Of a stretch of 64,000 nt of DNA, positions 40,500-41,413 are shown piece by piece. Origin of the DNA: Isurus oxyrinchus (Eukaryota); contig JANJGN010000026.1 of assembly GCA_026770705.1 (NCBI GenBank), positions 29,946,001 through 30,010,000 on the forward strand, in the 5' to 3' direction. A program made the position numbers and the translations under genes. The first letter of the stretch is position 1; every line of letters starts with the position of its first letter. The notes beneath the pieces are model-generated. The model was not told where the DNA came from, made no database searches, and worked only from the letters and a program-made list of their open reading frames with translations.

Positions 40500-40552
40500 C
40501 GTCTGCGACAGTCACCACCGTTCCGGATCCATCGACATATTTATAAACCAAC
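40500..40552 (-). other. NAR-TCR J segment 4 (LVYKYVDGSGTVVTVAD)
   Basis: 23-RSS at 40553-40591 (CACAGTG-23-ACAAGAATT on +); donor GTAAGA at 40499. Confidence 0.9.
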
Positions 40553-40932
40553 CACAGTGATGCAGCTTTCAATCATCCTGATACAAGAATTACCGGCTCT
40601 TCAATTTACCGCGGACGCATCACCTGATAGTCACCCTATTTTTCATTATTCCAGGGGGTTAGATCAATAACCAATATTTAGTGTTTCACAGCCTCCGTCG
40701 GTTCGAACTGTTCTTTGTGAGACTCCAAGCTCTTCGCAATTGGCCCAGGAACACGTAGAAACTTCATAGAAACTGAGGAAAATGTCAAAGAAACATAACA
40801 AAAATAGAACATTAGAATGTAATGAAACTAAACTAAAGCGATGATAACATCAATCCAACAATTTAACATCCGGGTCCGCAGCATATATATTTTAATTGTA
40901 CAGATGTAAATGGTCGGGTCTCATTCATTGTG

Positions 40933-41413
40933 AAATTCTTGTACGTGTATTTGGCTTTACAGTAATAGGTGGCGGTATCTTCAACTTTCACATCCCTAAT
41001 TTCAAGCGAAAATGTATTTTTTGCCCTGTTCGTCCACACAACAAATCTCCCTCCGCCGGGGATCCGCTCCCACTTTGTCCCACTCTGTGTTTGTCTGAAG
41101 AATTGTCCAGCTTGGAAATAATTCCACGAAGCACCAGAGAAAACACAGGTGATGGTGAGAGACTGACACTCCTTCCTGGTCACAGCTGCCGGGATCTGTG
41201 TCACTGACTGACCGAAAGAGCCTGGAAATTAAACAGAGAGAGATTTAATGGGCATTGAGAGCCAACCCATCCAATGGGGTTAAATCCTCAAATAGTGCTT
41301 GTTGTTGGAATGGACTTGGACAGTTTTATGTTTAATCCACACAATGTCGGATTGATTGATCTGTACTCACTGGGTAAACAGACGCAAAGGATGCAAACAA
41401 GCAGAATCCCCAT
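40933..41413 (-). CDS. NAR-TCR V4, intact (leader 41413-41371, V exon 41221-40933), joined directly to a D-type 12-RSS
   Basis: MGILLVCILCVCLP/SSFGQSVTQIPAAVTRKECQSLTITCVFSGASWNYFQAGQFFRQ..YYCKAKYTYKNF; then CACAATG-AATGAGACCCGA-CCATTTACA (40932-40905). Confidence 0.88.

Follow-up and report, generated by a model that had tools for sequence, protein, structure and literature searches.

From our analysis of a 64,000-bp stretch of the Isurus oxyrinchus genome (contig JANJGN010000026.1, positions 29,946,001 to 30,010,000; hereafter, the window), the V segment V4 is, on balance, best read as an inherited half-joined NAR-TCR cassette, likely the outcome of an old RAG V-D join, which would be completed by a single somatic V-to-J step, probably an inefficient one (Table 1). 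The leader, acceptor, V frame, J frame, and donor of the cassette are all intact, and the heptamer of J4 is perfect and its GT donor intact. The V4 exon terminates 29 nt past the start of the second Cys codon with the coding end YYCKAKYTYKNF, and the heptamer CACAATG follows directly, at 40932 on the minus strand, with a 12-nt spacer (AATGAGACCCGA) identical to the 3’ spacer of D2 at 9 of 12 positions. The first-pass annotation had proposed that V4 carries the 3’ 12-RSS of a D segment, giving a V(12)-(23)J anatomy, and both points held; the spacer of the unjoined V RSSs, which it had put at 23 nt, is 22 nt, and the unjoined cassettes here are laid out as V(22)-(12)D(12)-(23)J. Splicing of V4 to J4 was ruled out by translation and sequence inspection, as the best AG upstream of J4 leads to a stop in the J frame, and a read-through product (transmembrane or other) was ruled out as the V4 frame stops 32 codons past the second Cys.

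Table 1. Features of the V4 array and related elements (positions refer to the window unless a locus is named)
Feature	Coordinates	Strand	Remarks
V4 leader exon	41371..41413	-	ATG, open frame, GT donor, phase 1
V4 exon, NAR-TCR type	40933..41221	-	open frame; Cys in KEC is the a-b loop Cys; without WYRK Trp
D-type 3’ 12-RSS fused to V4	40905..40932	-	CACAATG, 12 spacer, decayed nonamer CCATTTACA
V4-J4 interval, homologous to D-J intervals of unjoined cassettes	40592..40904	-	
J4 23-RSS	40553..40591	+	CACAGTG, 23 spacer, nonamer ACAAGAATT
J4 coding segment YKYVDGSGTVVTV	40500..40552	-	phase-1 GT donor
Broken copy of fully joined VDJ exon	37367..37627	-	dead leader; acceptor and most of V deleted
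Match to end of non-leader upstream exon (cryptic donor)	35566..35593	-	spliced to joined exon in a related shark’s contig
Dead leader of joined exon	34013..34055	-	stop at codon 4; donor GTGGCT
Fully germline-joined NAR-TCR VDJ exon	33518..33862	-	open frame, AG acceptor, GT donor, CDR3 Cys
Supporting V-delta exon and consensus 23-RSS	29309..29653	-	CDR1 Cys, open frame; V-delta at 29653-29348
Unjoined reference cassette	9543..10666	+	V2 (22-RSS), 12-D2-12 (D2 10217-10233), 23-J2
Joined-exon loci, between rearranging head and V-delta	window 33518-33862, L061, L072, L073, L084, L086-L090, L097, L110, L116-L118, L122, L125, L130-L132		mostly dead leaders, fixed CDR3 Cys, runs of one to three

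The 380-nt heptamer-to-heptamer stretch between V4 and J4 was aligned with the two D-J and the two V-D intervals of the window. It aligned end-to-end with both D-J intervals (scores of 230 and 235; identities of 65.2% and 66.4%), whereas the V-D intervals scored only 26 and 20 and the top score among 200 shuffles of the D2-J2 interval was 43. The interval is thus D-J-like and not V-D-like, as had been claimed, and the absence of a V-D interval and of a separate D was likewise substantiated, no D with two RSSs being found between V4 and J4.

NAR-TCR, the doubly rearranging TCR-delta of cartilaginous fish, was reportedly described by Criscitiello in 2006. V4 belongs to the NAR-TCR V segments of the shark TCR-delta locus; the best two PDB sequence matches of V4 are VNARs (E=4e-16), it has a leader and the a-b loop Cys, the WYRK Trp is missing, and the window contains V-delta exons without a leader that bear a CDR1 Cys. 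From V4, a same-strand path leads to the V-delta at 29653 and, 47-74 kb downstream of it, to a D-delta (12-D-23), five J-delta (12-RSS), and a C exon, which by its transmembrane motif we take to be of the TCR-delta type. In the available text of PMC1845163, a leader, the a-b loop Cys, and the lack of the WYRK Trp, with a leaderless V-delta bearing a CDR1 Cys, are the features of NAR-TCR, and the present locus shares with that system the IgNAR-like V with these traits, its own D and J, the leaderless supporting V-delta, and the TCR-delta D, J, and C downstream. NAR-TCR is described there, and in the available text of PMC12227049 and PMC6795676, as two V domains, each of which is somatically rearranged. 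Unlike a NAR-TCR segment with its own V, D, and J, each with RSSs, and two somatic steps, V4 has its V-D step fixed in the germline, with no V RSS, no free D, and one step left; it also has no V-delta of its own (the nearest is 11 kb off, beyond two joined exons, with none within 6.3 kb), and a germline-joined leaderless NAR-type exon lies between V4 and V-delta. Among named proteins, white-shark gene models come closest (95-99% identity to paralogues here), and a search for V4 relatives of similar length gave three proteins without names (66-72% identical), which are uninformative.

The V4 half-join is inherited and old. Three copies of the cassette are found in the assembly, and an independent DNA run (X4) yielded a 1041-nt contig over 40141-41181 that spans the join with 20 differences, no gap, and ~98% identity. 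A predicted basking-shark model, P0006 (XP_078425937.1), shares 89.7% identity with V4, and no other intact V here exceeds 78.2%; the V end of the model, KNFTM, corresponds to the V4 end through the heptamer, after which the predicted model enters a J4-like J. The join is present across individuals or species, and the germline origin asserted at the outset stands. No white-shark orthologue of V4 was found among 49 longer proteins, which is weak evidence. That the join arose in assembly, or somatically in lymphocytes whose DNA was sequenced, could be suspected in a region with near-identical tandem duplications (99.5-99.8%), owing to which the V4 copy number is possibly inflated; nevertheless, the junction is spanned by the contig of the independent run, a basking-shark orthologue exists, and the interval is ~29% diverged from all paralogues, such that this reading is effectively refuted.

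We then placed V4 among the half-joins of the whole genome. The protein search gave at least 135 matches (150 of 588 candidates scored), of which 132 were NAR-TCR-like, and all 132 were fetched and classified: 60 were V-D-J and nine were V-D followed by a weak J, 30 were half-joined, 25 lacked both intervals (24 fully joined exons and a fragment, L161, which was dropped), and eight were truncated. These are counts of loci and not haploid numbers because several smaller contigs may be second haplotypes. Half-joined cassettes account for 16 of the 63 loci listed on the main contig; three further half-joined heads, all broken, lie outside the 132 loci, and a second C exon lies on contig C242. The 30 half-joins show eight junction types. 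In a tree built from 58 unjoined rows and 10 half-joined representatives, the half-joined label needs at least six changes, four of which are forced by the starred branches, which suggests that the half-joins among the loci listed arose in at least six events; a single origin of all half-joins was ruled out (AU test of one clade, p-AU 1.2e-42). A D end of 8-17 nt is kept in five of the eight junction types, against a null of 2-7 nt from 43 unjoined V ends; the L154 junction consists of a complete V end and a complete D, in the L134 type a complete D is accompanied by a few additional nucleotides, and the V4, L065, and L136 types have no recognisable D. The five D-retaining types have the appearance of RAG coding joints. 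Of the half-joined types, L065 is the most amplified (13 copies among the loci listed, e.g., G000:C26:33248934); it has its own V-delta, a 98-99% identical match in a white-shark model, and an in-frame stop just 5’ of the heptamer that is removable only by trimming.

At V4 itself, the D-like suffix is 4 nt, within the null range of 2-7 nt, and the D-versus-V log-odds of the junction go from -2.9 to +2.4 bits, varying with the scoring window. The two routes offered by the first-pass annotation, a trimmed V-D join and a deletion between heptamers, are therefore inseparable at V4, and a third route, a hybrid joint, fits as well. A germline hybrid joint would have linked the V coding end to the D 3’ signal end as an RSS swap, and a RAG-independent deletion would have run between two identical heptamers; in both cases the outcome would still be V(12)-(23)J. 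These routes agree with the lack of detectable D nucleotides at V4 and with its Cys-to-heptamer distance of 29 nt, which equals that of the longest unjoined V ends (19-29 nt), and germline hybrid joints have been argued for horn shark IgH in the available text of PMC2193153. They sit poorly with the D ends kept in five of the eight sister types and with the T that precedes the heptamer, whose frequency is 0.80 at D ends and 0.09 at V ends; moreover, V4 is on the longest branch of the tree (0.23), so a short D remnant could have eroded. We favour a trimmed RAG V-D coding joint for V4 because the sister junctions keep D ends, and we consider a hybrid joint or a heptamer-to-heptamer deletion rather improbable. 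By the favoured route, an old germline RAG V-D join would have fused V4 to a D-type 12-RSS facing the 23-RSS of J4.

The V4 cassette would be finished in T cells by one V-to-J recombination, and the product would have one variable junction and not two, and thus a shorter and less diverse CDR3. Splicing to the V-delta at 29653 would follow, and the leaderless joined exon at 33862 may or may not be included between the two. One-step joining of V4 to J4 appears to be permitted since the 12/23 rule is satisfied, with the 12/23 spacing and both CAC starts retained, and its efficiency is likely low. The V4 12-RSS scores 11.3 bits, lower than 37 of 38 unjoined D 3’ RSSs, which confirms the weak nonamer pointed out earlier; the A core of the RSS nonamer is important, and in the V4 nonamer, which has five mismatches to the consensus, two A’s of this core are lost. 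The RSS of J4 scores lower than 40 of 44 comparison RSSs, and the nonamers of V4 and J4 have diverged about as far as the neutral flank. As judged from sequence, the half-joined L093-L096 and L126, with leader and V intact and good 12-RSSs (22.9 and 28.7 bits), seem to be better candidates for one-step joining than V4.

With both nonamers decayed, a cassette of the same anatomy may no longer recombine, being either a decaying relic or a mere donor of promoter and leader; in the latter version, the V4 leader would skip the unfinished V4 exon and join the leaderless joined exon to give a two-V NAR-TCR with an invariant tip. The V4 leader donor and the joined-exon acceptor are both in phase 1, in line with this version, and in the white-shark model P0002 (prediction only) the orthologue of an exon that has a dead leader here is preceded by an intact one. 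Nevertheless, the V4 frame, the J4 frame, and the J4 donor are all intact, and when V4 is compared with two near paralogues, dN is lower than dS (Fisher p=0.013 and 0.016), a signal that may be historical. Conservation against the basking shark is also alike for V4 (89.7%) and a joined exon (87.7%), and no intact joined exon is available to the third V4 copy as a recipient for its leader. The identity of the V4 exon to its unjoined paralogues is 0.85 versus 0.77, 0.71, and 0.65 in the non-coding segments, and unjoined pairs have 0.87-0.89 in every segment. The contigs of three runs guessed to be RNA (organism A, two samples) leave the V4 exon uncovered and show no V4-J4 junction, which, for another organism, is uninformative either way. 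Taken together, we hold the loss of recombination to be unlikely and retain the reading of V4 as a cassette that would be completed in one step.

What is new here is that V4, without a V-delta of its own, heads an array with a fully germline-joined, dead-leader exon, and that such arrays recur. After V4, the order is a broken joined exon, an intact joined exon, and V-delta. Among the loci listed, 45 of the 60 unjoined V-D-J cassettes have their own V-delta, and of the remaining 15, nine stand at the head of one to three consecutive intact joined exons; conversely, all 19 intact joined exons listed have a same-strand NAR-TCR V at most 9 kb upstream. The leader is dead or unaligned in 16 of these 19 exons (two of the 16 being non-alignments, and three of the 19 leaders being open) versus 6 of 52 unjoined cassettes (Fisher p=1.6e-8, inflated by near-copies). 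Six joined exons that share a leader stop have no gaps in 345 exon columns versus 18 gap events in ~500 flank columns, and their variation is highest at third positions (36 vs 15 and 22). All 24 joined exons among the loci listed carry a Cys eight residues past the second Cys, which probably came from one ancestral junction, and white- and basking-shark models (predictions) carry the same joined-exon CDR3s. The notion that broken joined exons are headless ‘orphans’ was ruled out, as broken half-joined heads were found for three of the four. In the V-delta behind the third V4 copy (L168:8244-8558; G000:C26, ~30028243-30028557), the CDR1 Cys has moved two positions (CEYSCIR vs CEYSGIC), the Cys being retained despite two changes.

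Related sharks splice the joined exon to V-delta, as contigs of the runs X3 and X12 pass from the J donor to the V-delta start. The X3 contig (a guessed-RNA run from a related organism) covers the CDR3 side of the joined exon with four differences over 119 nt at a depth of 2, leaves at the J donor 33518, and enters the start of the supporting V-delta exon (30/30); the X12 contig, also from a related organism, likewise covers the joined CDR3 side to the J donor and then the V-delta start. The acceptor of the joined exon is used in two contigs, the upstream partner being a cryptic intronic exon close to 35570 in the first and, in the second, an unplaced exon that contains a stop in frame; neither partner is a J or a leader exon, and no splice from a head J to the joined exon occurs among the 15 contig pieces listed. 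A contig of run X1 over 33592-33714 of the window has a NAR-TCR V with a 1-nt deletion joined in the middle of a J4-like 23-RSS spacer with the heptamer retained, which is either an aberrant join or a germline deletion in that organism.

The possible fates of the joined exon are inclusion (at least three V domains), use with a borrowed leader (invariant tip), or skipping. Conceivably, the leaderless joined domain may make the receptor chain longer by one antibody-like unit. We raise, tentatively, the possibility that mackerel sharks make TCR-delta chains with three to five V domains, composed of a one-step V4-type head, one to three invariant leaderless NAR domains, and V-delta, with putative interdomain disulfides and RAG-born stalks. 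In such chains, the fixed CDR3 Cys of each spacer domain would bond the a-b loop Cys of the domain above, and stalk-extended T-cell receptors would be a product of repeated germline RAG activity. One white-shark model (prediction) chains two joined exons to V-delta; a horn-shark model (prediction) has tandem joined-looking exons without the CDR3 Cys, which counts against the disulfide being required. If the joined exons are internal domains, these chains would have more V domains than any TCR of the literature compared and would represent a convergence on the TCR-mu design.

Half- and fully joined genes are already known from shark Ig (PMC4279169) and opossum VH3-1 (PMC12269197), as given in the available text of both. 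Cartilaginous fish have Ig clusters joined in the germline either in part (VD-J) or in full (VDJ), and these, in the available text of PMC4279169 and PMC2193153, resemble the present locus in having joined beside unjoined cassettes, repeated origins, and trimmed or added junctions; here, however, a T-cell receptor is concerned, and the joined exons are mostly dead-leadered and lie inside arrays, not as free-standing genes. According to the same portion of PMC12269197, opossum MODOVH3-1 (VH3-1) has VH and DH joined in the germline with a 12-RSS and is used in recombination. It is similar to V4 in that a V bears the 12-RSS of a D and one-step joining to J is possible (for V4, as predicted from sequence), but it is an IgH gene whose RSS passes the RIC score and is used, whereas the V4 nonamer is decayed. 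In marsupial TCR-mu, V-mu-j is a germline-joined, invariant V (available text of PMC7615758 and PMC3457774). The likeness lies in a V exon that is joined in the germline, is invariant, and follows a rearranging V-D-J, V-mu-j acting as an internal domain; as far as that text goes, V-mu-j is itself the supporting domain, VH-like and likely retrotransposed, whereas the shark exons are NAR-type, keep the leader intron, occur singly or in runs of up to three, and have a separately rearranging V-delta downstream. The literature searched, including the available text of PMC12227049, PMC6795676, PMC5931798, and PMC3457774, has no joined NAR-TCR; locus tables in the primary NAR-TCR papers may already list such cassettes. 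In essence, the locus holds half- and fully joined NAR-TCR cassettes from what appear to be many separate events, some common to several shark families. It could thereby provide germline RAG junctions from a T-cell locus that form a dated series, as well as a natural test of the use of one-step, low-diversity or invariant NAR-TCR tips.

Several other features of the window were noted. Three NAR-TCR cassettes (3187-18819, plus strand), inverted relative to D-delta and C-delta, are situated between D-delta/C-delta and the V4 array (29309-41413, minus strand), and the V-delta of V2 contains a stop codon. At 18819-18990, cassette 3 is broken at the 5’ heptamer of its D; this heptamer and a V-delta-type 23-RSS meet head to head in the manner of a signal joint, and past this break are tandem RSS repeats of the kind found behind V-delta exons. 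A tandem repeat of ~61 bp with several extra 23-RSSs lies behind the supporting V-delta (29048-29347 and 55485-55784). The segments 24936-37563 and 51372-64000 form a 12.6-kb duplicate of 99.5% identity within tandem units of ~23-26 kb, either a true duplication or a haplotype artefact.
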